DNA of 36,609 bases from Thermodesulfobacteriota bacterium (GCA_044451425.1 JBIOKC010000003.1:1-36609), one strand, 5' to 3'. Positions 372 through 30,212 are shown, counted from the first letter of the stretch. Numbers and translations: made by a program. Notes: a model not told the origin generated them from the sequence alone.

Positions 372-3185
372 TTAGACGTTTTTTACCCAGGTGATGCCTA
401 ATTCATCGATGTGCGGAATCTGCTTTCCGATTGTGAAGCCCTGACGAATAAGTGCTTCCTGATTTACTTTGTGCATCGAAGCAATACCTTCAGCGGGGCT
501 AGAGTTCCTGCGCCTTCCCATGAAGTGAAGCGGGATCTGTCCCTTTATTAATTTCCTCAAGAACGGGTAGATGAACATCCATGCCCCCATATTCTCGGGT
601 TCTTCCTGGAGCCAGACGACTTCCTTGAGCTTGGAGTACCTGTTCAACGCGTTTTGGAGCATCGTTGCGGGTACGGGATATAGCTGCTCGAGCCTCGTGA
701 TTGCGATGTCCTTGGAATTCTGTTTCCTGATTTCACTTGAGGCCAGGTCTATGTAAACTTTGCCGCTGCAGAGTATCAACCGTTTTACGGATTTCGCATG
801 CCTGTCATCTATTTCATCGTCGATTAAGGGCTGCCATATTCCCTCCGAGAGATCCCTTAGCGATGAGAAAATGAAGGGGTTCCGGAGAAGGCCTTTCGGG
901 GTCATTACGATTAGAGGCAAAGGGTCTATTTCGAGCACTCCGGCCTGTCTTCTTAAGAGATGGAAATACTGTGCCGCAGTTGTGCAGTTCGCTATCCTCA
1001 TATTCACTTCCGCTGCGGAATCCAGAAATCTTCCCATTCGGCCGCTCGAATGGTCGGGCCCCTGACCTTCATAGGCATGCGGCAGGAGGAGTACGAGAGA
1101 AGGGGTCTGTCCCCACTTTGCTCTCGCGGAGACTACGTATTCGTCTATGATGGTCTGTGCGCCGTTTATAAAATCTCCATACTGAGCCTCCCAGATAACG
1201 AGCCTGTTGGGGGCCTGGATGTTATATCCGTATTCGAAACCTATGCAAGCGTTCTCGGTCAAAGGGCTGTTTAAAATTTCGAAAGCGGCAGTCGACTGCG
1301 GTATGTTCTGTAGCGGCGTATAAGTTTCACCGGTATTGAAATCATGAAGCACAGCGTGCCTGTGGCTGAACGTGCCCCTCTCTGCGTCCTGTCCCGTAAA
1401 ACGTATATACGTTCCGTCTGCGAGTATCGACGCAAATGCCAGCTCCTCAGCCATAGACCAGTCAATTGTCTTGTCGTCTATATTTGCGAGAGCGTTTTCC
1501 TTGCGCTCCCTCGTCCGTTTAAGTTTCGGGTTTGTAGTGAACCACTCCGGGAGTTCTAAAAGCGAAGCGTTAAGCTCCCTCAGTGTTTCAGCGGGCACGG
1601 AAGTGATAGTTTTTTGCGCCGCGCCGGCAGGAGGCCTGCCGGACAGGGATTCTTTCGGTACGTCCTGAGGGGTGAGGGATTCAAAATCACTATGCAGTAT
1701 TTCATTGTATTTACTTGCCAGTTTCTCACATTCTTCCTTGTACAATATTATCCGCTTTATACAGGTATCCGCCCAGAGTTCCCTTACTGTGGGGTGTTCG
1801 TCGATTATCTTGTACATTTCGGGCTGTGTGAAAGCGGGCTCGTCGGCTTCGTTGTGCCCGTGACGTCTGTAGCCCACAAGATCGATGAGGAAATCTTTTT
1901 TGAACAGTTTCAAGTAAGCGAATGCAAGGCGCGCGCATTCGATACAAGCTTCGGGGTCATCAGCGTTGACATGGACTATAGGGATCTCAAACCCTTTGGC
2001 GAGGTCGCTCGCGTAAAGAGTGCTTCGGCTCTCGCTCGGCAAAGCGGTATATCCGAGCTGGTTGTTGGTGATGATGTGAATCGTACCGCCCGTCAGGTAA
2101 CCTGGCAGTCTGCACATATTCAGGGTTTCCGATACTATGCCCTGCCCTGGGAATGCAGCATCCCCGTGTACAATTATGGGGAGAGAGAACTCCGGGTCAA
2201 ATGTAGGTGCACCTCTTCCATCCACCGTCGTGCCGGCTGCGCGCGCCATTCCCTCTACTACGGGGTTCACCGATTCTAGATGACTCGGATTTGGGGCGAG
2301 AGTAATCTGCATATCTATTTCCCTTCCGTTCTTTATAGCGTGGCGAGCCCCTTCGTGATACTTGACATCTCCGGTCCATCCCATGTAATCTCTGAAATCC
2401 CTTTCCAGAATCGGGTCCTTGAACTTTATCAGCGTCTCCCTGTAAGCCTTGTTCATGACATGATGCATGACATTGAGACGGCCCCTATGCGCCATGCCTA
2501 TTAGAATCTGATGTATGCCCGACTCCGCCGACAATCCGACTATCTCATTCATGATCGGAACGAGCATGTCGACGCCTTCTATGGAAAAACGGAATTTTCC
2601 GGGGAATATACGGTGTAGAAACTTTTCCAGCACTTCTACTTTGGTCAGGTTGTCGAGAAGCAGCTTTTCATTGATAGGATCCAATGGGGATTTGAACCTC
2701 CCTGTTTCCGCCGCCTCTCTGAGCCATTTCCTCTCTTCAAGTGAGTTTATATGATAATAATCATAACCCACCGTCGATGAATAGATTTTACGGAGCTCCT
2801 CAATCGCTTCATAGGCATTAGCGGTCTTATCCGACACCGGCTTTCCGATAAGGCTAGAGGGAAGTTGTACGAGGTCTTCTGGCGTGAGCCCGTGCGTGGA
2901 AAGTTCCAAAGAAGGATCACCCGGCGCCGCGCTGCCGAGCGGGTCTATTTTGGCGTTGAGGTGTCCAAAAGCCCTTATTGCCTGAGCGAGATTCGCCGTT
3001 GCAACGATTTTTTCGATATCGTGCTGGGTTATCTCGGCAGGCTTTTCTTCATATATCTCGGGGCGTAATTTATCAAATACAGCCCTTGTCGTTGAGTCTA
3101 CAGCGTTTGGGTCCCTGAGATAGCGTTCGTATAGCTCAAGCACATAACCTGAGTTAGGTCCGTGAAAAATATGGGAAATATCCAT
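372..3185 (-). CDS. sucA: 2-oxoglutarate dehydrogenase E1 component
   Basis: 937 aa with the motifs RFSIEG, GMAHRGRLN, GDVKYH, NPSHLE, TPP-binding HGDAAFPGQG, RHGHNEADEP, WEAQYGDF and PHAYEGQGPDHSSGR. Confidence 0.97.
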   Translation of the reverse strand: MDISHIFHGPNSGYVLELYERYLRDPNAVDSTTRAVFDKLRPEIYEEKPAEITQHDIEKIVATANLAQAIRAFGHLNAKIDPLGSAAPGDPSLELSTHGLTPEDLVQLPSSLIGKPVSDKTANAYEAIEELRKIYSSTVGYDYYHINSLEERKWLREAAETGRFKSPLDPINEKLLLDNLTKVEVLEKFLHRIFPGKFRFSIEGVDMLVPIMNEIVGLSAESGIHQILIGMAHRGRLNVMHHVMNKAYRETLIKFKDPILERDFRDYMGWTGDVKYHEGARHAIKNGREIDMQITLAPNPSHLESVNPVVEGMARAAGTTVDGRGAPTFDPEFSLPIIVHGDAAFPGQGIVSETLNMCRLPGYLTGGTIHIITNNQLGYTALPSESRSTLYASDLAKGFEIPIVHVNADDPEACIECARLAFAYLKLFKKDFLIDLVGYRRHGHNEADEPAFTQPEMYKIIDEHPTVRELWADTCIKRIILYKEECEKLASKYNEILHSDFESLTPQDVPKESLSGRPPAGAAQKTITSVPAETLRELNASLLELPEWFTTNPKLKRTRERKENALANIDDKTIDWSMAEELAFASILADGTYIRFTGQDAERGTFSHRHAVLHDFNTGETYTPLQNIPQSTAAFEILNSPLTENACIGFEYGYNIQAPNRLVIWEAQYGDFINGAQTIIDEYVVSARAKWGQTPSLVLLLPHAYEGQGPDHSSGRMGRFLDSAAEVNMRIANCTTAAQYFHLLRRQAGVLEIDPLPLIVMTPKGLLRNPFIFSSLRDLSEGIWQPLIDDEIDDRHAKSVKRLILCSGKVYIDLASSEIRKQNSKDIAITRLEQLYPVPATMLQNALNRYSKLKEVVWLQEEPENMGAWMFIYPFLRKLIKGQIPLHFMGRRRNSSPAEGIASMHKVNQEALIRQGFTIGKQIPHIDELGITWVKNV

Positions 3186-3259
3186 GTTTTCTTGCCCTTT
3201 TTGATTCGAATCGTCAGCTTCTGGACGGATTAGTATTAAAGTTTCAATTCACGCACAAT

Positions 3260-3287
3260 ATACTAGCACAGTAATATTTTTGTGCAA
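3260..3287 (-). promoter_or_regulatory. Putative sigma70 promoter for sucAB
   Basis: The minus strand reads TTGCAC-N16-TAGTAT with an extended -10 (TGcTAGTAT), about 75 nt upstream of sucA. It overlaps a GCACA-N10-TGTGC inverted repeat (3266-3285). Confidence 0.45.
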
Positions 3288-3437
3288 TCTCGCGGGGGCT
3301 AAAAGAATTTGCGGTTTCGAAGTATTTGTGATAGCAGCCGGACAGGTTGCAAATAGACGAATGGAGGGTAAAAACCGACGATAAGTTGCAGAATAATTTC
3401 CTTTTTATTACCACCTACAAGCCAGCAATCTCCTATG

Positions 3438-4316
3438 TTAACCCTTATACGATTCGATGAATTTCTCGTAATGCTCTCTGTGGCCATCGCGCCCGACCTT
3501 TTGCTGAGCAGGCGGGGGTTCGTTCTTGTTGAGAATGAGAGTTTCCAGTGAAGAGTGGTCGCCCTTAAATATCAATCCGATCGGTATCTTTCCCTCTTCT
3601 TTCAACTTGATGGCTCTTTGAAAAGCCATCCCTCGGTTAGTGGGATCATAACCTTTCTCTTCCTCGATGTTGTAGACCCTCGCCCGCCACTCGCGGTGAG
3701 TGTCATAATAGGTCACACATGGCGAGAGCACTTCTAGGAATGCAAAACCCTTTTTGGATTCCGTATGTTCGAGGGCTCTTTCCATCAAGCTTTCGAGCTG
3801 TTCCGAGTTCCCGCTGAATCCGCGGGCAATGAATGTCGCCGAGGGGAAGCTCAAGCCTAACAGTATCGAGTCCATGCCGGATTCGGGGTTGTCTCGGTAG
3901 CCGGTCGGGCTCGTGGGCGATGCCTGGCCCTTAGTCAGACCATAGTTACTGTTGTTCATTACAATGTAAGTGATACTGGGGTTGCTCTTGAATGTGTGTA
4001 CGAGGTGCCCCGCTCCTATCGCGTATCCGTCGCCGTCACCGCCTGTGGCGATTACCGTCAGGTCAGGGTTGGCGAGCTTTGCTCCTATGGCCGCAGGCAA
4101 TACTCTGCCGTGAAGCGCGTGGTAACCGTAGCAGGGCACATTATTCTGGATTGTACCCGAGCATCCGATCCCCGCCAGCATCATGAGCTTGTGCGAAGGG
4201 ATCCCCTTCTTATGCAGGGCTTTCTCAAGAACTCCCTGAACTGCGAAGTCTCCGCACCCGGCGCACCATATCGGTCTTGCGGGTTCGAAAGTTTTTGTAT
4301 GCGGCTCTGTGCTCAT
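3438..4316 (-). CDS. korB: 2-oxoacid:ferredoxin oxidoreductase beta subunit (KorB/PorB family)
   Basis: Motifs WCAGCGD, GIGCS, TPP-binding GGDGDGYAIG...MNN, YGLTKGQASPT and SPCVTY. Its start overlaps the alpha-subunit stop (ATGA). Substrate specificity cannot be determined from sequence. Confidence 0.92.
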   Translation of the reverse strand: MSTEPHTKTFEPARPIWCAGCGDFAVQGVLEKALHKKGIPSHKLMMLAGIGCSGTIQNNVPCYGYHALHGRVLPAAIGAKLANPDLTVIATGGDGDGYAIGAGHLVHTFKSNPSITYIVMNNSNYGLTKGQASPTSPTGYRDNPESGMDSILLGLSFPSATFIARGFSGNSEQLESLMERALEHTESKKGFAFLEVLSPCVTYYDTHREWRARVYNIEEEKGYDPTNRGMAFQRAIKLKEEGKIPIGLIFKGDHSSLETLILNKNEPPPAQQKVGRDGHREHYEKFIESYKG

Positions 4317-6118
4317 TGAAGCTTTGCCTCCTTTTTACGCTTCTTGATAAAATGACTTTCATGCTCGAGAACCCTTTTAGCTAGCTCCGCTGGTTTGAAT
4401 GGAACCCCATCATATTTCAATACGCTGATCAGCTTGTCTGGGTCGGCTCCTTGGTGCATAAATATATGCGCAAGTTGTGCCTGCGCGTTAAGCTCCACTA
4501 CGTATACCCTCTTGCACGTGTCGATGTACTCGTGTATTTCTTCGAGGACGGGCCATATGGTTCTTGGCTGTAAGTATTGAGTCTTGATCCCTTCCCTCTC
4601 TAAATCTTCCATCGCTTCAAGTATAACTCCGAATAATGAACCGATACCTATGAATCCTATACCTGCTTTTCGGTTGCCGAAGTGCCGTGCCTTAGGCAGT
4701 TCCTTTTTCGCGAATTCCAGCTTCCCCATGCGTTTATTCATCATCTTGACGCGATTTATCGGGTCAGTCGATACGAGTCCCCATTCGTTATGCTCGTTTC
4801 CGGTAACGAGGGAGAGACCCCCGGGCGTACCCGGCACTGCGAGAGGTGAAACGTTGTCCTCGGTGAACTGGTAGCGTTTGTAAGCTTCCATATTTTCGAG
4901 ATCTTTTTGTTCGAGCCGTTTCCCGGGAATCGCGCTAACTCCGTCCAGGTTAAACGGTTCGACTGTTGCAACATTTTGCGATAAAGCCTGATCCATTGCT
5001 ATGAATACCGGACACTGGTATTTGTCGGCAAGGTTCGTGCCCTCGACAGTAAGGGAAAAACAATCTTCCGGGTGTCCGGGCGCCACCACAATACGGGGGA
5101 AGTCACCGTGTCCACCATAGACCATGAGGTTGAGATCGCTCTGCTCGGGCTTGGTCGGCATACCCGTACTCGGTCCCGAGCGCTGACAGTCGACTATTAC
5201 GAGCGGTATTTCTCCCGAACCGGAGTGCCCGACCCCCTCCTGCATCAGGGACAACCCCGGACCCGAAGTAGCCACCATCGCTCTTGTTCCGGTAAGCGCT
5301 GCGCCTAGCGCCATATTTATACCGGCGAGCTCGTCTTCGGTCTGTCTAGCGACTCCTCCCACGCGGGGGAGCCATTTCTGCAGGGTTTCCAGAACTTCCG
5401 ATGACGGCGTAATAGGGTAGCCGCAAAAGAACCTGCCTCCTGCGACCATGAAACCGAATGCGATGGATTCATTGCCCGTGATTAAAAGACGCTCTTCGGG
5501 CGCTGTGTGCTTTATCTTATACAGACCTTCACCCTCATGTAAATTCATCTCGTCCGCTAGATGAAAGCCCAAACCCAGTGCCTCGAGGTTATATTCGAGA
5601 ATGACCTGCCCCATTCTCTTAAAGTGGCTGATAAATGTCTCGCGCAGGATCTCGTCCTCGAGTCCCAGGATGCGTCCCACGACCCCAAAGGCTATACTAT
5701 TCTTATACAGCTCCCGGCGCATGGTGCGCATTGCGATTCTGTTGAACGGAGCCGAATAAACTTTCGTTCCATTTGGGAGTACGGACGGGACAGGCCCCCC
5801 CGAGTCGTCGTATAAAACTACGCTTTTGGGATCGAGTTGACGGGCATTCTTTTGAACGGCTTCGTCGTCGAGGGCCACGAGGAGGTTGATATTGCTTCCT
5901 ATGCAGTAACTATTCTTTGCCGATGCCCTCATTGTGGCGGCCGCGTGACCTCCCCTGATTCTCGACAGCACGTCCCTTTCGGTATATACATTAAGTCCGT
6001 TTGTTCTCAAGAGTCCGGCGAGCATCGTTATAACGGTAAGCGAGCCGTCGCCGCCCTGGCCAGCTACGATTATGTTCACGTCGTCTAAAATAGGCCGGTT
6101 GTCATTATTAGAGCTCAT
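4313..6118 (-). CDS. korA: 2-oxoacid:ferredoxin oxidoreductase alpha subunit with fused gamma domain (KorA family)
   Basis: 601 aa. N-terminal gamma domain (GQGGDG, SRIRGGH), then GYPITP, QTEDE, ATSGPGLSLM and QRSGPSTGMPT. Confidence 0.92.
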   Translation of the reverse strand: MSSNNDNRPILDDVNIIVAGQGGDGSLTVITMLAGLLRTNGLNVYTERDVLSRIRGGHAAATMRASAKNSYCIGSNINLLVALDDEAVQKNARQLDPKSVVLYDDSGGPVPSVLPNGTKVYSAPFNRIAMRTMRRELYKNSIAFGVVGRILGLEDEILRETFISHFKRMGQVILEYNLEALGLGFHLADEMNLHEGEGLYKIKHTAPEERLLITGNESIAFGFMVAGGRFFCGYPITPSSEVLETLQKWLPRVGGVARQTEDELAGINMALGAALTGTRAMVATSGPGLSLMQEGVGHSGSGEIPLVIVDCQRSGPSTGMPTKPEQSDLNLMVYGGHGDFPRIVVAPGHPEDCFSLTVEGTNLADKYQCPVFIAMDQALSQNVATVEPFNLDGVSAIPGKRLEQKDLENMEAYKRYQFTEDNVSPLAVPGTPGGLSLVTGNEHNEWGLVSTDPINRVKMMNKRMGKLEFAKKELPKARHFGNRKAGIGFIGIGSLFGVILEAMEDLEREGIKTQYLQPRTIWPVLEEIHEYIDTCKRVYVVELNAQAQLAHIFMHQGADPDKLISVLKYDGVPFKPAELAKRVLEHESHFIKKRKKEAKLQ

Positions 6119-7395
6119 TTAGATGCGTTTCCTCCGTTAGCGGGGTTATAGTCTTTGTAAAGCGTCTTGGGGTTCGTGTTACCCATCTCTATCCTCTCCT
6201 GTAGTGTGGGCATCAAAGCAGGAAGCGGTTTATTTCTCTTCTGATGGCATAGTTTTATCAGCAGATCTTTCGCTCTGGGTTCCGATTCGACAGGCTTTAT
6301 TTCGAAGAGTCCGTCGTCAACGGCGGCCTGAAATGCTTTGTGCCCGGCCTCCGTTCTCACAGCGACGAAAGTCCAGCCGTCAAGACCTATTCCCCCGACC
6401 CCTATATCCGAATGCTCGGCAGAGTAATCCAGGCAGTAGAGGCATGCAGGCCGTGCGAACTGGTGGAAGTCCTTTAGTTTCATTATTATCTCGCGGCCGT
6501 CCCTGAGCGTTATTATTACCTTCCCCTTTACGTTCACGTTCACTATATCTTTTGGCTCCACGTTGAGGGTGTCCGCGATGTATTGAATATGTTCATGCGT
6601 AAAGCTTTCGGAACAAAAAAGCCCTATTACGAGAGTGACATTTTTTTGATACCATTTCGCCACCTCAAGGCGTATGCTGCTGTATTGCTGCTGACGTACT
6701 CCGTCTACCTGGCATGGCACGCCCACTACCGCTATGGGATGTATGTCCTTCCTCATCGCCTCCGTCAGGGCGACGGTATTGGGCGAATATGTATATCGAG
6801 AGCCGCTGCAGGACAAAATTTCCTCAGGTGTGGTGGCGAGCTTATGAATCCCTACCTGTGGGTTTTCCGGGAGCACGTCCCCGAGCACGGCGCCCTTGAT
6901 CGTTCCTTTGTTGAGGGCGTGTACGAGGAGTGCACTCGTCACACCTCCGTCCTGGCCGCGCTTCAGAAATTCCTGGTCCTTCGCGCGTGCGATAACGGCG
7001 TAATTGTAGGGTCCGAACCCCTCATCTATTATAGGTTTTTTAAATCCGAGAAGTGTTTTGAGGTCTTTGTCCAGGGGTCTCAGTACGGGGCAGACGTCGG
7101 CACACAATTCACAGAACACGCATGCGTCGTTTCTCGTGTCTACCGGGTGCTCGTCCTTATAGTCGAATACGTCAGTGGGGCATATAGTCACACACGCAGC
7201 GCAACCGACACATTTACCCGTGTCCACTATCTCGCGCATCAGGAAATCGACCGCTTTGAACCCGCCGCGGTTGATTTCCGATCTCCAGGCATAAGCCCAT
7301 TCATAAGGATCGACTCCCTCTTCGAGCATATAGCGGTATTTCTCCTGAACGGCGCGTACCAGTTTCTCATCCCTGCTTAATTCTTCATTGCTCAT
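6115..7395 (-). CDS. FrhB/FdhB-family (coenzyme F420 hydrogenase beta-like) Fe-S flavoprotein with an N-terminal 2x[4Fe-4S] ferredoxin domain
   Basis: Two ferredoxin motifs (CVGCAACVTICP, CVFCELCADVCP) and FrhB motifs GQDGGVTSALL, GSRY, VVGVPCQ, IGLFCSESF, CLYCLDY and DIGVG. The ATG at 7395 follows a GAGGGAG RBS. Its stop overlaps the korA start (ATGA). Confidence 0.85.
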   Translation of the reverse strand: MSNEELSRDEKLVRAVQEKYRYMLEEGVDPYEWAYAWRSEINRGGFKAVDFLMREIVDTGKCVGCAACVTICPTDVFDYKDEHPVDTRNDACVFCELCADVCPVLRPLDKDLKTLLGFKKPIIDEGFGPYNYAVIARAKDQEFLKRGQDGGVTSALLVHALNKGTIKGAVLGDVLPENPQVGIHKLATTPEEILSCSGSRYTYSPNTVALTEAMRKDIHPIAVVGVPCQVDGVRQQQYSSIRLEVAKWYQKNVTLVIGLFCSESFTHEHIQYIADTLNVEPKDIVNVNVKGKVIITLRDGREIIMKLKDFHQFARPACLYCLDYSAEHSDIGVGGIGLDGWTFVAVRTEAGHKAFQAAVDDGLFEIKPVESEPRAKDLLIKLCHQKRNKPLPALMPTLQERIEMGNTNPKTLYKDYNPANGGNASK

Positions 7396-7793
7396 AATCA
7401 ACACTCCCTCTTAGATTATTCTGCAGAATTACGTTTATCGGTAAATATATTTATGCAACTTGGCGGGTCATGTTACGTCAAAGTACGGCTTAACAGTATT
7501 CTAGCCCTCAAGTCGTATAAAAAATAGCTTTTTTGCACAATATTAGCCGAGTTAGTTGATTAATTTCTATTCCTTTACCATAGCTAACAATAGTATATCA
7601 GTTTTTTATCATAGTAAGTGTATTTAGTCAATGTAAAAATACCATGCTTTGCGAGCTTTGCGAAAGATCATGGAAAGCCCGTCACCTTGGGATCTCGGCA
7701 AAATGTTTGGATTAGAATTACTAGACAGTTATTCTATTTCTTGATATCGACCGCCCGGGTTGAAGGTATAGTTGTGTCAGAGACGATTTTGAG

Positions 7794-23432: not shown

Positions 23433-24743
23433 GTGAAAAACCCAAAAAACCTCATTCTGGGCGGCGGTGTGACCGGACTCGCTGCAGGCTGGGTCTCCGG
23501 CCTTCCCGTCTACGAGTCGGAAGCCCTGCCCGGCGGTATCTGCTCGTCATATTATCTCAGGCCCGGGAGTAGTGACCGCCTCTTTAAATCCCCCGAGGAC
23601 GGAGAAGCGTACCGCTTCGAGATAGGAGGGGGGCACTGGATTTTCGGAGGAGACCCGGCGGTGCTCCATTTTATAAAGTCCATCGTCCCCGTGAAGTCTT
23701 ATAAGAGGAAATCTTCAGTCTATTTCAGCAAATCGGGTCTTTATGTCCCGTATCCTATACAGAATCACCTTGGCTGCCTCGGAAAGGACATCGCTACGAA
23801 AGCCATAAACGAGATTGTAAACGCCTCGGACGGAACGCCCGAAACGATGGCGGACTGGCTTGAGATGAGCTTCGGCAAGACGCTTCTCGGACTCTTCTTC
23901 GCGCCGTTTCACGAACTCTACACGGCGGGGCTATGGACAAAGATCGCGCCCCAGGATTCATATAAATCTCCCGTCAATCTATCTATCGCACTCCAGGGAG
24001 CAATCGATAAAGCGCCTCCCCCGGTGGGGTATAACGTCACCTACGTTTACCCCCGAGAGGGTTTGAATACGCTTGCGCAGCGGATGGCGAGTAAGTGCGA
24101 CGTTAACTACGATAAGCGCGCTGCAAGGATAAGCGTTAAGAAGAAGGAGGTCTTTTTCTCGGACGGCTCGGGCGCTAAATACGAAAATCTCATATCCACG
24201 CTCCCGCTTAACAAGGCGGTGCGGATGGCGGGCATCAAAGTCGACGAGAAGCCCGCCGATTACACCTCGGTGCTCGTATTGAATATCGGAGCGAGACGCG
24301 GGAAGAAATGCCCGGATTACCACTGGCTCTACATACCGGACAGCGAATCCGGGTTTCACAGGGTCGGGTTTTACAGCAACGTTGATACTTCGTTCATGCC
24401 CAAATCGTCGCGGAAAGACAATGACCGCGTGAGCATATATGTGGAAAAGGCTTATCGGAACGGTAAAAAGCCCGCAGACAAAGAAATACGGGATTACTCG
24501 GACTCGGTTGTCAGGGAGCTCGGGTCGTGGGGATTCATATCGAAATCCGAGACCGTGGACCCGACCTGGATAGACGTCGCATACACATGGTCGATGCCCG
24601 GCTCAAGGTGGAAGGAGCGTGCCCTTAAAGAGCTTGAGAGTTACGGCGTATATCAGATAGGACGCTACGGACGCTGGATGTTCCAGGGCATCGCCGAGTC
24701 TATTAAGGACGGGTTTTTCCTCGGCGGAGCTTTTAGGCCCTGA
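23433..24743 (+). CDS. FAD-dependent oxidoreductase, UDP-galactopyranose mutase / PPO-like family
   Basis: GGGVTG Rossmann motif, GGHWIF, VPYPIQN, FHRVGFYSN and GRYGRW. GTG start after AAGGAG. Confidence 0.75.
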   Translation: MKNPKNLILGGGVTGLAAGWVSGLPVYESEALPGGICSSYYLRPGSSDRLFKSPEDGEAYRFEIGGGHWIFGGDPAVLHFIKSIVPVKSYKRKSSVYFSKSGLYVPYPIQNHLGCLGKDIATKAINEIVNASDGTPETMADWLEMSFGKTLLGLFFAPFHELYTAGLWTKIAPQDSYKSPVNLSIALQGAIDKAPPPVGYNVTYVYPREGLNTLAQRMASKCDVNYDKRAARISVKKKEVFFSDGSGAKYENLISTLPLNKAVRMAGIKVDEKPADYTSVLVLNIGARRGKKCPDYHWLYIPDSESGFHRVGFYSNVDTSFMPKSSRKDNDRVSIYVEKAYRNGKKPADKEIRDYSDSVVRELGSWGFISKSETVDPTWIDVAYTWSMPGSRWKERALKELESYGVYQIGRYGRWMFQGIAESIKDGFFLGGAFRP

Positions 24744-24784
24744 TCAAGAAATAGAAAATAATAAACTTTTTCCTCCTACCTGAA

Positions 24785-25087
24785 TCAATCTTTTCGAATG
24801 GAACGATTGGATCTTTCTTTTATTCTGATGAGAAAATGAAATATTCTCAAGCTTGTATTTGGTGGGAATAAATCTACAAATTTTATGATTGTTTTATCTC
24901 TTAATACAGTGAGTGCTCCTGACCAAAGTGAGAACCTGAGCTGAATGAGTTCGTTCACGCCGGCTTTTGACTTTCTAAATCGCTCATTATACCAATCGGT
25001 ATTTTTGAGCTTAGAGCTGCGTAATAGTAAGCTGTCCAGAAAATTAGTCAGTACTTCTTTTTCTACTTTAATCGGGATTTTGTTCAT
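24785..25087 (-). CDS. Hypothetical basic protein (100 aa), last gene of the glycan operon
   Basis: Its ATG overlaps the upstream HAD gene by 20 nt, it fills the gap before the convergent gene, and it is on the operon strand. No recognisable motif. Confidence 0.4.
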   Translation of the reverse strand: MNKIPIKVEKEVLTNFLDSLLLRSSKLKNTDWYNERFRKSKAGVNELIQLRFSLWSGALTVLRDKTIIKFVDLFPPNTSLRIFHFLIRIKERSNRSIRKD

Positions 25088-27140
25088 TGATATAATGTTT
25101 GGTTAAGTTCCAGCATATTACACGCTTCGCCAAATTATAACAGGTTACTATAAAAGGGATGTTGGATTTGCTCAATGACCCCTCTTTCCAGGGTATTTCC
25201 GCTAAGGATTTTCGGAATTCTCTATAATTGAGGAAATCACGGATAGAAAAATTTCTTACTATTGCTCTGATATTTTCAGAACCGAAGTCATCTGCATTTG
25301 AAAGTTGCTCGAACGCTTTTACACTCTCTGCGGTCGGGTAGCCGAGGTAAGTATTGTAGTGCTTAACTACATAGGATTTTAACTCGTTTGGGTTTATATC
25401 GAGAACACTTATCAAATTCGCGTATTCTTCGGCAAAATCAATAATTCCTCTTTGGATATTTTGAATATGAGGGATTATTATTTTCTCGTTGGTATTGTCT
25501 GCGAATAAAGGTAACACTGTTCCGTCCTGCTGTTCTTCGTAGCCGATCGTTGCTCCGTGATCGGGCCTGCACGGGAGTTCGAGGGCTTCTCTGAAAAAAA
25601 TCATTGCTCTTTCATCAGGTGTGGAATTTCTATAATCGCAAATTAAGCCTTTCTTGTTTACGGACAGATCGAAGAGGGGAGGGTTTAAGGCAAGGTAATA
25701 ACCGGTGATAGAAGGGAAATCTTCAAATTCCGAGAATGCATGTTCTATGCAGCTTTGAATCGTTCCAAGCCATCCAATATCAACGATTGCGATCCTGCCG
25801 TCTTTTGAAGAAAAAATACCTTCTTGTCTCAGGTATTTCTCTAATAACTTTCTCATTTCTCTCGAATGGTTTATTACGACATTGTTGAATTCAGGCTTTG
25901 CTATTAATGTTTTGATAGTTTTTTTTAATTTTTGATAACTGAAGTTTGTGGATGTGTCTATATTATATTTCTCTAGAATTTCATTGGCTTCCTTTGACTC
26001 TCCAAGGCCTAACCTGTCCATTACATTTTTGACACTTGTGTTATCGCCGAATATGGCCAGTTCTAATTCCCTTTTGGAGAAATTTTTTATTGAGGAAATA
26101 AAACTCGTATATCTGCTTAGATATATATAGTTCGGAGAGCCGATACCGCCCCCGTAAATTCTGTCGGAAAGGATATTAAAAATCTTCTGCAGTATAAAGC
26201 CGTCGCGGGCGACGAAGTAAAACCTTTCGATCTTTTCTTTTTGAATTTCGGTGATGAAGGAGTGAATATAGAGAGTCAAAATGGGGCCTACTATATTTTT
26301 CCCCCAGTAGTAAAATTCGCTCTCAGGAGAGTTCCTGTTGTCTTTTTGTTTTTCGGCTGACTGGAGCTTATTGATGAAGGAGTAACCTTTCCAAAAATCG
26401 GACCTATTCTCCCAGTTTTGCAGCTTTTGAAGAAGCTTGCGTCTTTTTAAATTCCATTCGTCGAATAGTAGAATAGAGTTGATACCTAACCCCTTTGGAA
26501 TAAAGTAATCGCTTATGGTGTTATCCCCGATATGGATTATTTCGTCAGGTGAAATTCCTTCGGTTTCTAATATTTTCCCAAACAACCTGCCGCTTCCCTT
26601 GTTTAATTTATATTCGCAGGAACAGTAAATCCGTTCAAAGAAATGATCTAAGCCTGCGGACTTTAGCAGACCTTCTAAAATGTCCGTAGGAAGGTAAGTA
26701 TCGGATACCGCAATGAGCTTATAATGTATTTTTAATTTCGAAAGCAAATTTTTCATTCCCGGCATGGGAGAGGTTAAAGCGTCTTCTACCTTGATTTCCA
26801 TGTCTACAAGTTTTTCTTTTACATCGCCATTGGCTCCCAAGTCCCTAGTAACGGAATCCATTATTTCCCGGATTGAACACTCGGGGTCAAACTTGTTATC
26901 CTGGGCTTCCATTCTAAGCTTTTCTTCACAATTATTCCTTAGAGTGAGCAGCTCATTTGCTGAAATATCCAGCAGCCCGGCACGCTCCACATTATTTGAG
27001 ACTATTCTTTTCACCTCATCAGGCGGGTCTATCTTTCTGATAAGTAGAGTGTCAAAGACATCGAACGACACAATTTTGACTTTATTGTCCGACCGTTCCT
27101 CTGAGAAATAACCGATTAGTTCTTCGAGATTAGTTATCAT
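25068..27140 (-). CDS. HAD phosphatase + phosphoribosyltransferase-like two-domain protein, probable glycan ribofuranosyltransferase
   Basis: N-terminal SFDVFDTLL, VSDTY, K.SG.LF and HIGDN..SD (HAD motifs I-IV). C-terminal FVARDG, YLSR and the PRPP-loop-like IVDIGWLGTIQ. It sits in a wzm/wzt locus. Confidence 0.75.
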   Translation of the reverse strand: MITNLEELIGYFSEERSDNKVKIVSFDVFDTLLIRKIDPPDEVKRIVSNNVERAGLLDISANELLTLRNNCEEKLRMEAQDNKFDPECSIREIMDSVTRDLGANGDVKEKLVDMEIKVEDALTSPMPGMKNLLSKLKIHYKLIAVSDTYLPTDILEGLLKSAGLDHFFERIYCSCEYKLNKGSGRLFGKILETEGISPDEIIHIGDNTISDYFIPKGLGINSILLFDEWNLKRRKLLQKLQNWENRSDFWKGYSFINKLQSAEKQKDNRNSPESEFYYWGKNIVGPILTLYIHSFITEIQKEKIERFYFVARDGFILQKIFNILSDRIYGGGIGSPNYIYLSRYTSFISSIKNFSKRELELAIFGDNTSVKNVMDRLGLGESKEANEILEKYNIDTSTNFSYQKLKKTIKTLIAKPEFNNVVINHSREMRKLLEKYLRQEGIFSSKDGRIAIVDIGWLGTIQSCIEHAFSEFEDFPSITGYYLALNPPLFDLSVNKKGLICDYRNSTPDERAMIFFREALELPCRPDHGATIGYEEQQDGTVLPLFADNTNEKIIIPHIQNIQRGIIDFAEEYANLISVLDINPNELKSYVVKHYNTYLGYPTAESVKAFEQLSNADDFGSENIRAIVRNFSIRDFLNYREFRKSLAEIPWKEGSLSKSNIPFIVTCYNLAKRVICWNLTKHYINEQNPD

Positions 27141-28393
27141 TGTAATATATTTGTGAAAAGCTCTTCATAGTTATCTATCATTGTCTTTAATGAGAAATCG
27201 TTTGCCCGTCGTTTGGCCAATTCGGAAAGTTCGTATCTGAGTTGTCTGTCCGACAGTAATTTTGTAATGGCGTCAGCTAGCTTGTTTTCATCTTTTGGTT
27301 TAACCAAAACTCCGCACTTCCCATTCTCCAGTATCTCTCCGGGTCCTGATGGGCAGTCGGTAGAGATTACGGGAATGCCGAGAGACATTGCCTCTATAAT
27401 GACGAGCGGAAGCCCCTCCCAATCAGAGCTTAACACGAATAAATCGCATCGAGAGATAATGTTGAAAGGATTTTTCCTCCACCCCAGGAATAATACGTCA
27501 TCGCCGATTCCGAGATTATTTGCCAGATTTTGAAGCTTCTCTTTTTTCTCTCCCGTTCCTAAAATCAGGAGTTTGGTGTTAGACCTGAATTGCATTTTAT
27601 TATAAGCTCTTATTAGTAGCTCATGGTTCTTCACATTTGTTAATCTGCCCGAAGTGATTATTTTCTTGGTGTTCTTATCCTGAAGAATTTCTTCGGTTTC
27701 GCCGTTGAGCTTCTCTTCGCTTTCCTTTTTAACATTCTCTATGTCAATTCCGTTATAGATTTTGATGACTTTGTCTTTAGGAAGCCAGCAGTATTTGACG
27801 AGGTCATCTTTGGATCCCTCGGATACTGCTATATGATAATCGGATCTTTTATACAGAAGTTTGATTAACATTCTATAACAGAAAAGATACGGGAAAGATT
27901 TAATTTCTCTTGATAAAATGGTATGATCCGAACAGCATGCAGGAATATCTGTTTTAAATAAGTATTTGTTTATCAGTACTATTAGGTTTGAATTAACGAG
28001 AAAACTTACGATTAAGTCCGGTTTCTCTTTTTGAATAATACCGTTTAGTACTTTTGAAGAAAGATATAAATCTCCTAGAAACTTTTCCATTTCCTCTCGT
28101 TTTTTCGAGTAACATTCTTTTGAAGTAAAGTATTTAAAGTTATAAAATTTGGCGATTCTTTCAATTAACAATTCAATCCTAGAATCATTATTGTCGGTTG
28201 ACATTAATTCCTGATTTGCAGAAGAGTAAAGTTTAACGGTGTCGGGAATGTCATATTCGATTTTAGAGTCTAGCGACATATATATAGAAGCCTTGAATTT
28301 GCCCGTATCCAAGCCGCTAACCAAGTTGCACATTATTTTCTCTGCCCCACCCCCTGCTAATGAATCTATTACAAAAAGGATATGTCGCTTCAT
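27137..28393 (-). CDS. GT4 family glycosyltransferase
   Basis: GGGAEK, IYNGID, GRL...KNH and SSDWEGLPLVIIEAM (EX7E motif). Its stop overlaps the HAD gene start (ATGA). Confidence 0.92.
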   Translation of the reverse strand: MKRHILFVIDSLAGGGAEKIMCNLVSGLDTGKFKASIYMSLDSKIEYDIPDTVKLYSSANQELMSTDNNDSRIELLIERIAKFYNFKYFTSKECYSKKREEMEKFLGDLYLSSKVLNGIIQKEKPDLIVSFLVNSNLIVLINKYLFKTDIPACCSDHTILSREIKSFPYLFCYRMLIKLLYKRSDYHIAVSEGSKDDLVKYCWLPKDKVIKIYNGIDIENVKKESEEKLNGETEEILQDKNTKKIITSGRLTNVKNHELLIRAYNKMQFRSNTKLLILGTGEKKEKLQNLANNLGIGDDVLFLGWRKNPFNIISRCDLFVLSSDWEGLPLVIIEAMSLGIPVISTDCPSGPGEILENGKCGVLVKPKDENKLADAITKLLSDRQLRYELSELAKRRANDFSLKTMIDNYEELFTNILQ

Positions 28394-28442
28394 GATAGTT
28401 TCGCTATTTGCGATTCAGCTTCCATTAAATATATATCTCGCA

Positions 28443-28471
28443 ATGATCAAAACGGTCCGGCGGTTTGTCAA
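28443..28471 (-). promoter_or_regulatory. Putative internal sigma70 promoter for the GT4-HAD-hypothetical module
   Basis: TTGACA-N17-GATCAT on the minus strand, 50 nt upstream of the GT4 start, inside a ~300-nt gap. Confidence 0.4.
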
Positions 28472-28699
28472 GAGCATCTATTTGTACTCTTAATTGTATT
28501 TTGTATAAATTCTCATTAGAACTGCCATCGAAAACAATATTTCCTATTCCAGTTAGAATAAACCCGCAGCTCCGCTAGAGTTCCCAGTAAATTTAGGGTC
28601 ATATTCATTCTCTGGAAATCTCACAAATCATAATGTTCACAGTATTCGAAGTATTTCACTTGATAAGTCGATATATTAAGTCTCTGTACGCAATACACT

Positions 28700-29413
28700 T
28701 TATTGATTAGAAGATATACTGCCATCTTTTATATATATTATCCTGCTAGTTAGCTCCAGCATTAATTTCCTGTCATGCGAGACAATGACTATCGTTTTTT
28801 TGTTATGTATCAGTTCTTTTATTTTGTTTATACATTTTTCCTGGAACGATTCGTCTCCTACGGCCAGTATCTCGTCTATCAATATGATGTCAGCGCTGCT
28901 GTGGATCGCTATCGAGAATCCGAGCCTGGCATTCATCCCGTTTGAATATTTTTTAATCGGCATATCGAGAAACCTTTCTTCTATATCCGAAAAAGCTATA
29001 ATGCTGTCGATCTTGGCCCTGATTTCCCCGATCGACATCCCGATAATCGTGCCGTTAGTATAAATGTTTTCCCTCCCCGTGAGGTCGGGATGGAACCCTG
29101 CGCCGACTGAGATGAGAGGCGCCACTCTGCCTGCGACTCCGATCTTGCCTAGGCTTGGGTAAGTAACGGAGGCTATGAGTTTCAATATAGTCGTTTTCCC
29201 GGCTCCGTTGGGTCCGAATAGACCCACGCACTCCCCCCTTTTGATCGAGATATTTATCCCCTTTAATGCCCAGAACTCTACTGAGGATAGCTTGTCTTTC
29301 CCGCCCTTTTTAAATATTCCTGTAATCTCTTCCCGCAGTGAGTTGTGGAAAATATCTCTCATCGAGTATTTTTTCCACACGTCCTTGAATTCTATGATTC
29401 CCTCAGATGACAT
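28700..29413 (-). CDS. wzt: Polysaccharide ABC exporter ATP-binding subunit (Wzt/RfbB/TagH type), no C-terminal carbohydrate-binding module
   Basis: FWALK, GPNGAGKTT, GAGFHPDLTGRENI, YSNGM.ARL.F, IDEILAVGD and VSHD. Confidence 0.9.
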   Translation of the reverse strand: MSSEGIIEFKDVWKKYSMRDIFHNSLREEITGIFKKGGKDKLSSVEFWALKGINISIKRGECVGLFGPNGAGKTTILKLIASVTYPSLGKIGVAGRVAPLISVGAGFHPDLTGRENIYTNGTIIGMSIGEIRAKIDSIIAFSDIEERFLDMPIKKYSNGMNARLGFSIAIHSSADIILIDEILAVGDESFQEKCINKIKELIHNKKTIVIVSHDRKLMLELTSRIIYIKDGSISSNQ

Positions 29414-30176
29414 CGGCAAAGTCCCGTTCGGTCTTTATGAAAAACCTGTAACATAGGAAATAAAATACCGCTACTATAATACTCACGAAAATAAACTGCC
29501 ATAACACTACGCCCCGACCCTCTATCAGACACCTCCTCATGTTTTCGATGAGGAAGGTCAGAGGATTAATAAATAAAATTAACTTGAATTCGATGCTCAA
29601 ATTATCGATGGAGTAGAGGACGGGTGAGGCAAAGAAAAGAAGCTGTATCAGAAACCCGGTCGCGAGCTTAACGTCCCTGTAATAAACATTCAGGCTCGAC
29701 AATAGAAGGCACATAGACATCGTAAAAAAAAATAACAGTACGAGAAGCGGCAGTATCCAGAATATGTAATACGTGATATGGATGTGATAGATCAGCAGCA
29801 GTGGTATAAATATCACCGATGCGATTATGTAATCGAGGAAGGCCATTACTAGGCCAGATAAGGGGAGTATCTCCCTCGGGAAGTATATCTTCGTGATGAG
29901 ATTGTAATTGCCAGTGAGACTCGTAAGCGAGAAATTCACTGAAGTGGCGAAGAATGTCCACGGCAAAAGTCCGGCATAAAAGAATACCGACCTCGGGTAG
30001 TCTGAAACATCGGCTCTGATTAGATAAGTAAATACGAACGTAAAGAGCAGCATCATGCTGAGAGGCTGAATTACCGCCCAGAGGACGCCGATTAAGGACT
30101 GACGGTACCTGATATTGAATTCCCGCCATACGTAGATAAAAAAGAGGTCTTTATAGGGTAAAATTCTTCTAAACAT
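29403..30176 (-). CDS. wzm: Polysaccharide ABC exporter permease (Wzm/RfbA/TagG type)
   Basis: RYRQSLIGVLWAVIQP, LITKIYFPRE, YYRD, SPVLY, NPL and C-terminal FADVI. Confidence 0.92.
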   Translation of the reverse strand: MFRRILPYKDLFFIYVWREFNIRYRQSLIGVLWAVIQPLSMMLLFTFVFTYLIRADVSDYPRSVFFYAGLLPWTFFATSVNFSLTSLTGNYNLITKIYFPREILPLSGLVMAFLDYIIASVIFIPLLLIYHIHITYYIFWILPLLVLLFFFTMSMCLLLSSLNVYYRDVKLATGFLIQLLFFASPVLYSIDNLSIEFKLILFINPLTFLIENMRRCLIEGRGVVLWQFIFVSIIVAVFYFLCYRFFIKTERDFADVI

Positions 30177-30212
30177 CGATATGATATACCTTACTCCGGG
30201 TCGGGGCAGGGT

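Follow-up and report, generated by a model that had tools for sequence, protein, structure and literature searches.

Some enzymes that normally reduce ferredoxin are rewired to the cofactor F420 by a subunit of the FrhB family. In the excerpted text of Lemaire et al. 2024 (PMC11493965), the structures 8RIU and 8RJA are those of the F420-reducing carbon monoxide dehydrogenase (CODH) and formylmethanofuran dehydrogenase (Fwd) of Ca. Ethanoperedens thermophilum, and coupled F420-reductase activity is proved in both cases. The zeta subunit of the acetyl-CoA decarbonylase/synthase (ACDS; 8RIU chain B) and the Fwd-bound subunit (8RJA chain E) each combine, within a single chain, a ferredoxin domain with an FrhB domain and a C-terminal extension. 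In the excerpted text of Chadwick et al. 2022 (PMC9012536), FrhB6 and FrhB7 of the anaerobic methanotrophic archaea ANME-1, found in pyruvate:ferredoxin oxidoreductase (PFOR) gene clusters and with CODH subunits, respectively, are suggested to reduce F420 oxidatively. Here we describe an operon of an frhB-like gene, korA and korB at positions 3,438 to 7,395 of a 36,609-nucleotide stretch of DNA from a Thermodesulfobacteriota bacterium (GCA_044451425.1 JBIOKC010000003.1:1-36609), which is called the window below. The genome is a metagenome-assembled genome (MAG) of 2.57 Mb in 503 contigs, 92.9% complete, and near-identical proteins are found in other genomes labelled Candidatus Dadabacteria or Thermodesulfobacteriota.

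The three genes probably encode one enzyme, a 2-oxoacid:F420 oxidoreductase that would work in the oxidative direction; we put the probability of this reading at roughly 0.7. An initial annotation of the window had proposed such an enzyme, and the proposal gains support, as a prediction, from F420 biosynthesis (cof) genes, synteny and kinship in sequence and fold, with complex modelling adding weak support. The FrhB-like protein has the same build as the Ca. Ethanoperedens subunits and would follow the same logic, a normally ferredoxin-reducing enzyme rewired to F420. It differs from them in its partner, which is a thiamine pyrophosphate (TPP)-dependent, KorAB-type 2-oxoacid:ferredoxin oxidoreductase (OFOR) and not CODH or Fwd, and in its host, which is an aerobic bacterium and not an anaerobic archaeon. 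The KorAB-linked clade also has an N-terminal extension of about 55 residues and a conserved tail of its own. The proposal for ANME-1 FrhB6 is likewise a genomic inference, namely that an FrhB paralogue found next to a 2-oxoacid oxidoreductase uses oxidative decarboxylation for the reduction of F420. By its description in PMC9012536, however, that system is archaeal, belongs to PFOR clusters and is confined to one order, whereas the present operon is of the two-subunit KorAB type, occurs in about ten bacterial phyla and is cof-linked. The idea is thus not wholly new, since FrhB paralogues in ANME-1 PFOR clusters were proposed for this role earlier (PMC9012536). A search of the full-text literature for a bacterial F420-linked OFOR brought up no paper, one of the phrase searches being unable to match terms written with a colon, and PMC8305020 and PMC7426153 contained nothing of relevance.

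The FrhB-like protein is composed of an N-terminal extension, a 2x[4Fe-4S] ferredoxin domain (Pfam Fer4 dicluster, residues 59-107), an FrhB-type domain for flavin adenine dinucleotide (FAD) as well as a [4Fe-4S] cluster, and a conserved C-terminal tail; the fusion of the two domains had been recognised in the initial annotation. Both Pfam families of the FrhB-type domain passed their cut-offs (FrhB_FdhB_N, PF04422, 70.1 bits against 22; FrhB_FdhB_C, PF04432, 129.8 bits against 23.3), and the single match to PF04432 in the whole genome was this protein. The cluster motif CxxCxxCxxxCP occurred twice in the six frames of the window, both times within the frhB-like gene. Across 41 orthologues the twelve cluster cysteines were invariant, as were the stretches QDGG, SRY, GVPCQ, GLFC.E and C..C.DY, which align with FrhB of Methanosarcina barkeri (6qgr_B). 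The N-terminal extension and the C-terminal tail were conserved and specific to the KorAB-linked clade and its nearest relatives.

Kinship to the named proteins FrhB, FpoF, Fsr and HCAR was gauged through PDB and NCBIfam scores. The best PDB sequence match for the C-terminal 270 residues was FrhB of the F420-reducing [NiFe] hydrogenase (6QGR, 4OMF, 3ZFS), with 157 bits to 6qgr_B over residues 127-395 and with the cluster cysteines and QDGG kept. The Ca. Ethanoperedens subunits 8rja_E (142 bits) and 8riu_B (133 bits) matched over residues 52-392, including the ferredoxin domain. Weaker matches were Fsr (111 bits), FdhB (at most 58 bits) and the ferredoxin-dependent chlorophyll enzyme HCAR (37 bits). 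Going by depositor names, the twelve top PDB matches were all subunits of F420-linked enzymes. An AlphaFold model of the monomer had a mean predicted local distance difference test score (pLDDT) of 68.7, with a good FrhB domain; its top Foldseek match was 8riu_B (E 4.7e-23, TMt 0.71, identity about 27%), and FrhB chains reached TMt 0.83-0.85. Sequence and fold thus support a grouping of the FrhB-like subunit with F420-using enzymes, far from the ferredoxin-dependent HCAR. Unlike FrhB, the protein carries its own ferredoxin domain, falls in a separate supported clade and has no hydrogenase among the other large open reading frames (ORFs) of its window.

Relatives were sought among 1.84 billion representatives at 50% identity. 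The orthologue group appeared there as one representative at 60% identity, followed by four relatives at 45-49% and then by a broad radiation at 30-43%. A FastTree phylogeny was built from 133 rows, namely the window protein, six clade members and 126 of the best 150 representatives (19 fragments and the last five omitted), and was labelled by NCBIfam scans of 128 of the 150 (17 fragments and five others omitted). The KorAB-linked group formed one clade (99% local support), which was joined by the four relatives at 45-49% (100%) and stood apart from the two rows that passed the FrhB equivalog cut-off.

KorA matched the Pfam families POR, POR_N and PFOR_II and, with 600.7 bits, exceeded the 482.75-bit cut-off of the alpha-subunit model TIGR03710 (OAFO_sf). 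Its top PDB match was the 2-oxoglutarate:ferredoxin oxidoreductase (OGOR) of Magnetococcus marinus, 6n2n_A (386 bits). KorB passed the Pfam cut-offs of TPP_enzyme_C and PFO_beta_C and remained below that of TIGR02177 (237 bits against 261.9); its top PDB matches were 5b46_B, the Sulfolobus tokodaii OFOR (170 bits), and 6n2n_B (163 bits). Cys18, Cys21, Cys52 and Cys200 of KorB and its GDG..NN stretch were invariant or nearly so across the 41 orthologues. KorAB resembles the two-subunit OFORs (6N2N; 5B46/5B48) in its fused gamma-alpha subunit, the single [4Fe-4S] cluster of its beta subunit and the lack of a delta subunit. Those enzymes use free ferredoxin, whereas KorAB here travels with a dedicated frhB-like gene.

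The synteny of the three genes is strict. A scan of one genome per species gave 162 stretches encoding relatives, of which the best 80 were used as loci. They carried the labels Dadabacteria/Thermodesulfobacteriota, Bipolaricaulota, Acidimicrobiia and other Actinomycetota, Gamma- and Alphaproteobacteria, Myxococcota, Dehalococcoidia/Chloroflexota, Poribacteria, Gemmatimonadota and Spirochaetales, which amounts to about ten phyla. By tblastn, korA lay directly downstream of the frhB-like gene in 79 of the 80 loci, the lone exception being truncated by its contig end within the frhB-like gene, and korB came next after korA in 71; the other nine loci stop short of korB. Because the same gene order recurs in 79 of the 80 related loci, the arrangement is not due to chance. 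Four-nucleotide overlaps were present, according to our own ORF calls, at 33 of 43 frhB/korA junctions and at 40 of 43 korA/korB junctions. Identity across phyla was higher for the FrhB-like protein (59-66%) than for KorA (46-61%). The greedy ORF caller was unreliable on high-GC loci, and the flanks were scanned with Pfam in eight loci of lower GC content.

The operon is also linked to F420 biosynthesis, both by co-occurrence and by gene position. Three genes of the host genome exceeded their NCBIfam cut-offs, cofG with 430 bits, cofD with 335 and cofE with 265, and cofG is adjoined by a probable cofH. Fno (238 bits) is encoded as well, as are luciferase-like paralogues, of which there are at least nine; a true Fgd was not found in the genome. 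Among 50 operon-bearing genomes, cofE was detected in 48, in 46 of them over the cut-off, while the other two matches were fragments at contig ends. The expectations of the initial annotation, that this genome and others with the operon would encode F420 biosynthesis and that the frhB-like gene would stay next to korAB, were thus borne out. For the genomes labelled Gammaproteobacteria, cofE exceeded the cut-off in 16 of 17 with the operon, whereas in an evenly drawn sample of Gammaproteobacteria it did so in 12 of 299. An FrhB-like orthologue was found in none of 300 other genomes that were sampled evenly from the class to which one gammaproteobacterial host belongs. Since the 17 gammaproteobacterial genomes are mutually related, we treat this as an association and not as a formal test.

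Regarding gene position, cof genes adjoin the operon in nine of the 80 loci, in Alphaproteobacteria, Acidiferrobacteraceae, Poribacteria and Actinomycetota. In L071 and L078 a pair of luciferase-like genes comes first, followed by frhB-like, korA, korB, cofE and cofD and then by cofG and cofH, and the luciferase-like genes and cofE/cofD of these loci form an "F420 island". Luciferase-like (Bac_luciferase) genes flank the operon in four of the eight loci scanned (L045, L052, L071 and L078). Such adjacency would also be accounted for if the FrhB-like protein served the biosynthesis or maturation of F420 and not its bulk reduction, and a paralogue of the protein closes a cofDEGH operon. We consider this most improbable: 71 of the 80 loci, the present window included, have no adjoining cof gene, a TPP-dependent OFOR is an unlikely partner in cofactor tailoring, and the FrhB fold is known for deazaflavin hydride exchange, as described in a portion of 10.1101/2022.04.07.487323.

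For the proposed 2-oxoacid:F420 oxidoreductase, the following path of electrons may be envisaged. KorAB, as a delta-less two-subunit OFOR, would decarboxylate a 2-oxoacid on TPP to give an acyl-CoA, and the two electrons would exit singly through the lone [4Fe-4S] cluster of KorB. In the FrhB-like subunit they would then pass through both [4Fe-4S] clusters of the ferredoxin domain and through the FrhB-type [4Fe-4S] cluster to FAD, from which a hydride would be transferred to F420. The resulting F420H2 could supply F420-dependent reductases, and Fno could exchange it with NADPH.

With the 2-oxoacid/acyl-CoA couples near -500 mV and F420 at about -350 mV, reduction of F420 should be the only direction in which the reaction runs. 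The reverse reaction, in which F420H2 would drive the reductive carboxylation of acyl-CoA and the enzyme would be a 2-oxoacid synthase for CO2 assimilation, is very unlikely to be the physiological one. It would fit the closest solved relative of KorA, the Magnetococcus OGOR 6n2n, which we take to be an enzyme of the reverse tricarboxylic acid (TCA) cycle, and the label of some hosts, Acidiferrobacteraceae, which are known as autotrophs. However, F420 is about 150 mV too positive for the 2-oxoacid couples, and the host, with two haem-copper oxidases and two E2 genes, is an aerobe that also has conventional dehydrogenase complexes. The E0' of F420 used here is from the consulted portion of 10.1101/2022.04.07.487323, and the same energetic argument is made for archaeal clusters in the excerpted text of PMC9012536.

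Several results weigh against a 2-oxoacid:F420 oxidoreductase. The FrhB-like protein did not pass the model of true FrhB (equivalog TIGR03289; 197 bits against a cut-off of 331.5) or those of FpoF/FqoF (NF040616, 133 bits against 475; PRK09326, 131 against 444). Therefore, it represents a separate clade, with F420 as its predicted acceptor. Two of the 50 operon-bearing MAGs gave no cofE match. Within the host phylum the association of cofE with the operon is uninformative, because cofE is nearly universal there (116 of 120 genomes, against 28 of 120 with the operon). As the host genome encodes Fno, the operon enzyme is not the sole possible source of F420H2. Every operon-bearing genome is an uncultured MAG, and the ferredoxin domain of the monomer model had a pLDDT below 50. 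Finally, the score of the modelled complex, described below, fell in the weak band, with one of three runs at 0.11 and with KorA trimmed to residues 205-483.

The scores below the FrhB and FpoF equivalog cut-offs would also be expected if the acceptor were something other than F420, such as NAD(P)+, Fo, a different flavin or a quinone. Moreover, FrhB-family genes occur in a control genome, that of Bacteroides thetaiotaomicron, where no cofE match was found. We nevertheless regard another acceptor as quite unlikely, given that 48 of 50 operon genomes have cofE, compared with a gammaproteobacterial baseline of 12 in 299, and given the embedding of the operon in cof clusters at nine of 80 loci and the naming of the nearest solved relatives as F420-linked enzymes.

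The complex was modelled from KorA residues 205-483, KorB and the full FrhB-like protein, each with a 41-row alignment. The interface score ipSAE was 0.61, 0.53 and 0.11 in three runs (median 0.53), compared with 0.00 for the best of three controls, and was graded as weak support. In the benchmark, 116 of 157 solved complexes and two of 215 mismatches attained the ipSAE mark, and the band up to 0.60 held 18 of the 157 solved complexes and both mismatches. At least 83% of contacts were common to the runs, and the pLDDT of the partner was at least 84. Modelling of the complex had been suggested in the initial annotation, to which it lends weak support. The complex model raises the odds slightly; it is the synteny that carries the argument.

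These modelling results, including the run at 0.11, leave some room for the FrhB-like protein being a soluble ferredoxin:F420 oxidoreductase like free FpoF, co-expressed with KorAB outside any fixed complex and served by transient docking or free ferredoxin; the net chemistry would then be unchanged. A paralogue 33-36% identical to it does stand alone in a cofDEGH operon, with no OFOR. Such an unbound enzyme is unlikely in the present case, considering the gene order, which about ten phyla keep strictly (79 of 80 loci), the widespread four-nucleotide overlaps and the conserved N-terminal extension and C-terminal tail, both restricted to this clade and its nearest relatives. In addition, the solved homologues described in the excerpted text of PMC11493965 are bound subunits. 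What the data show is the gene structure, the domains, the ligand motifs for cofactors, the strict synteny and the link to F420 biosynthesis; for the FrhB-like protein and KorAB we infer the formation of a complex, F420 as its acceptor, the oxidative direction and, with the reservations given below, the substrate.

To our knowledge, the known bacterial F420 reductases are Fgd and Fno. The operon probably adds a route that charges F420 directly from central metabolism, a prediction made here from the genes. We lean slightly towards a wider interpretation, in which these operons represent a widespread, unrecognised class of bacterial enzymes that oxidise a TCA-cycle 2-oxoacid and load F420 directly. 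This class would be a main source of F420H2 in many uncultured aerobic lineages, among them Dadabacteria, Acidimicrobiia, Dehalococcoidia, Poribacteria and gamma- and alphaproteobacteria, and would travel in a transferable F420 island of biosynthesis genes, the reductase and F420H2-using enzymes. If so, the F420 pool would be tied directly to the TCA cycle, which would explain how F420 is kept reduced in many uncultured lineages of sea and soil that have cof genes and numerous luciferase-like enzymes. The principle of the "FrhB adaptor", which is proven in archaea for CODH and Fwd, would be widened to bacteria and to TPP enzymes. The enzyme might also find use in biocatalysis as a simple system for regenerating F420H2. 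A 2021 review on F420 (PMC8498797) states, in its excerpted text, that experimental work on what F420 does in bacteria other than Actinobacteria does not exist, and lists Dadabacteria among the phyla with F420 genes; the words FrhB, FpoF, oxoglutarate and oxoacid are absent from its main text.

The coordinates of the operon and its neighbours are given in Table 1. Read directly on the minus strand, the frhB-like/korA junction (6118-6115) is AAATGAGC and the korA/korB junction (4316-4313) is CAATGAGC; both are ATGA start/stop overlaps, as the initial annotation had reported. An alternative start of the frhB-like gene is GTG 7404, which would give 429 aa. The ATG is the likelier start, because of the Shine-Dalgarno-like sequence 8 nt upstream and because the homologues begin with MSNEE. 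The earlier statement that the window contains no separate ferredoxin or delta-subunit gene, hydrogenase or formate dehydrogenase also holds within the following scope: a second locus for the CxxCxxCxxxCP type of motif is absent in all six frames, and Pfam detected no hydrogenase, formate dehydrogenase or ferredoxin among the 28 other large ORFs. Scans of the window for promoters and terminators gave no signal (six promoter-like sites against 4.7 expected, five terminator-like sites against 4.8 expected).

Table 1 Features of the frhB-like-korA-korB operon and adjoining genes in the window
Feature	Position	Strand	Remarks
frhB-like gene, predicted F420-reductase output subunit	6115..7395	minus	426 aa from ATG 7395
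FrhB-type domain	6283..6996	minus	FrhB_FdhB_N residues 137-213, FrhB_FdhB_C residues 224-374
Two CxxCxxCxxxCP motifs of ferredoxin domain	7212..7177 and 7122..7087	minus	six-frame regex scan
Shine-Dalgarno-like GAGGGAG	7404..7410	minus	8 nt upstream of ATG 7395, read from sequence
korA, fused gamma+alpha subunit of two-subunit 2-oxoacid:acceptor oxidoreductase	4313..6118	minus	601 aa
korB, TPP- and [4Fe-4S]-binding beta subunit	3438..4316	minus	292 aa
sucA (2-oxoglutarate dehydrogenase E1), next gene downstream of korB	372..3185	minus	Pfam E1_dh, Transket_pyr, OxoGdeHyase_C, 2-oxogl_dehyd_N
sucB (E2) 5' part, truncated at contig end	3..356	minus	lipoyl-domain-like translation start, judged by eye

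KorAB passed no substrate-specific NCBIfam model (PRK09627, 249 bits against a cut-off of 579). Our guess for the substrate, made with low confidence, is 2-oxoglutarate, which is favoured because KorA is closest to the Magnetococcus OGOR and because sucA and the start of sucB adjoin korB. The gene sucA lies downstream of korB in 19 of the 80 loci, all of the Dadabacteria type; as a general clue to the substrate this adjacency was rejected, since it is confined to those loci. A 402-aa open frame is located 3' of sucA in a relative (L007).

In the window, genes for a conventional 2-oxoglutarate dehydrogenase and for the FrhB-linked OFOR thus stand back to back on one strand. Another gene for an OFOR alpha subunit, 34% identical to KorA, is present elsewhere in the genome on a contig of 1105 bases (L100; G000:C466:529-1080).

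FrhB-like genes also occur apart from korAB. In locus L097 (G065:C20:19500-29500; 874-6343, plus strand), of the sister families, the FrhB-like paralogue mentioned above, of 400 aa and 33-36% identical, ends a cofD-cofE-cofG-cofH operon. No OFOR adjoins this paralogue, possibly a free ferredoxin:F420 oxidoreductase, which is present in 14 of 120 genomes of the phylum. In the gammaproteobacterial host G035, a second FrhB-like gene of 493 aa, 36% identical, was located (L098, G035:C1:57000-66000; 3688-5169, plus strand). It is separate from the korAB-linked copy, with a luciferase-like gene about 850 bases downstream on the opposite strand.

Apart from the operon, positions 24000-30200 of the window have a G+C content of 0.39-0.43, against about 0.48 elsewhere, and encode glycosyltransferases, a pair of ABC-2 exporter proteins and a protein with a HAD domain. 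The region looks like a cell-surface polysaccharide locus, possibly an acquired one.

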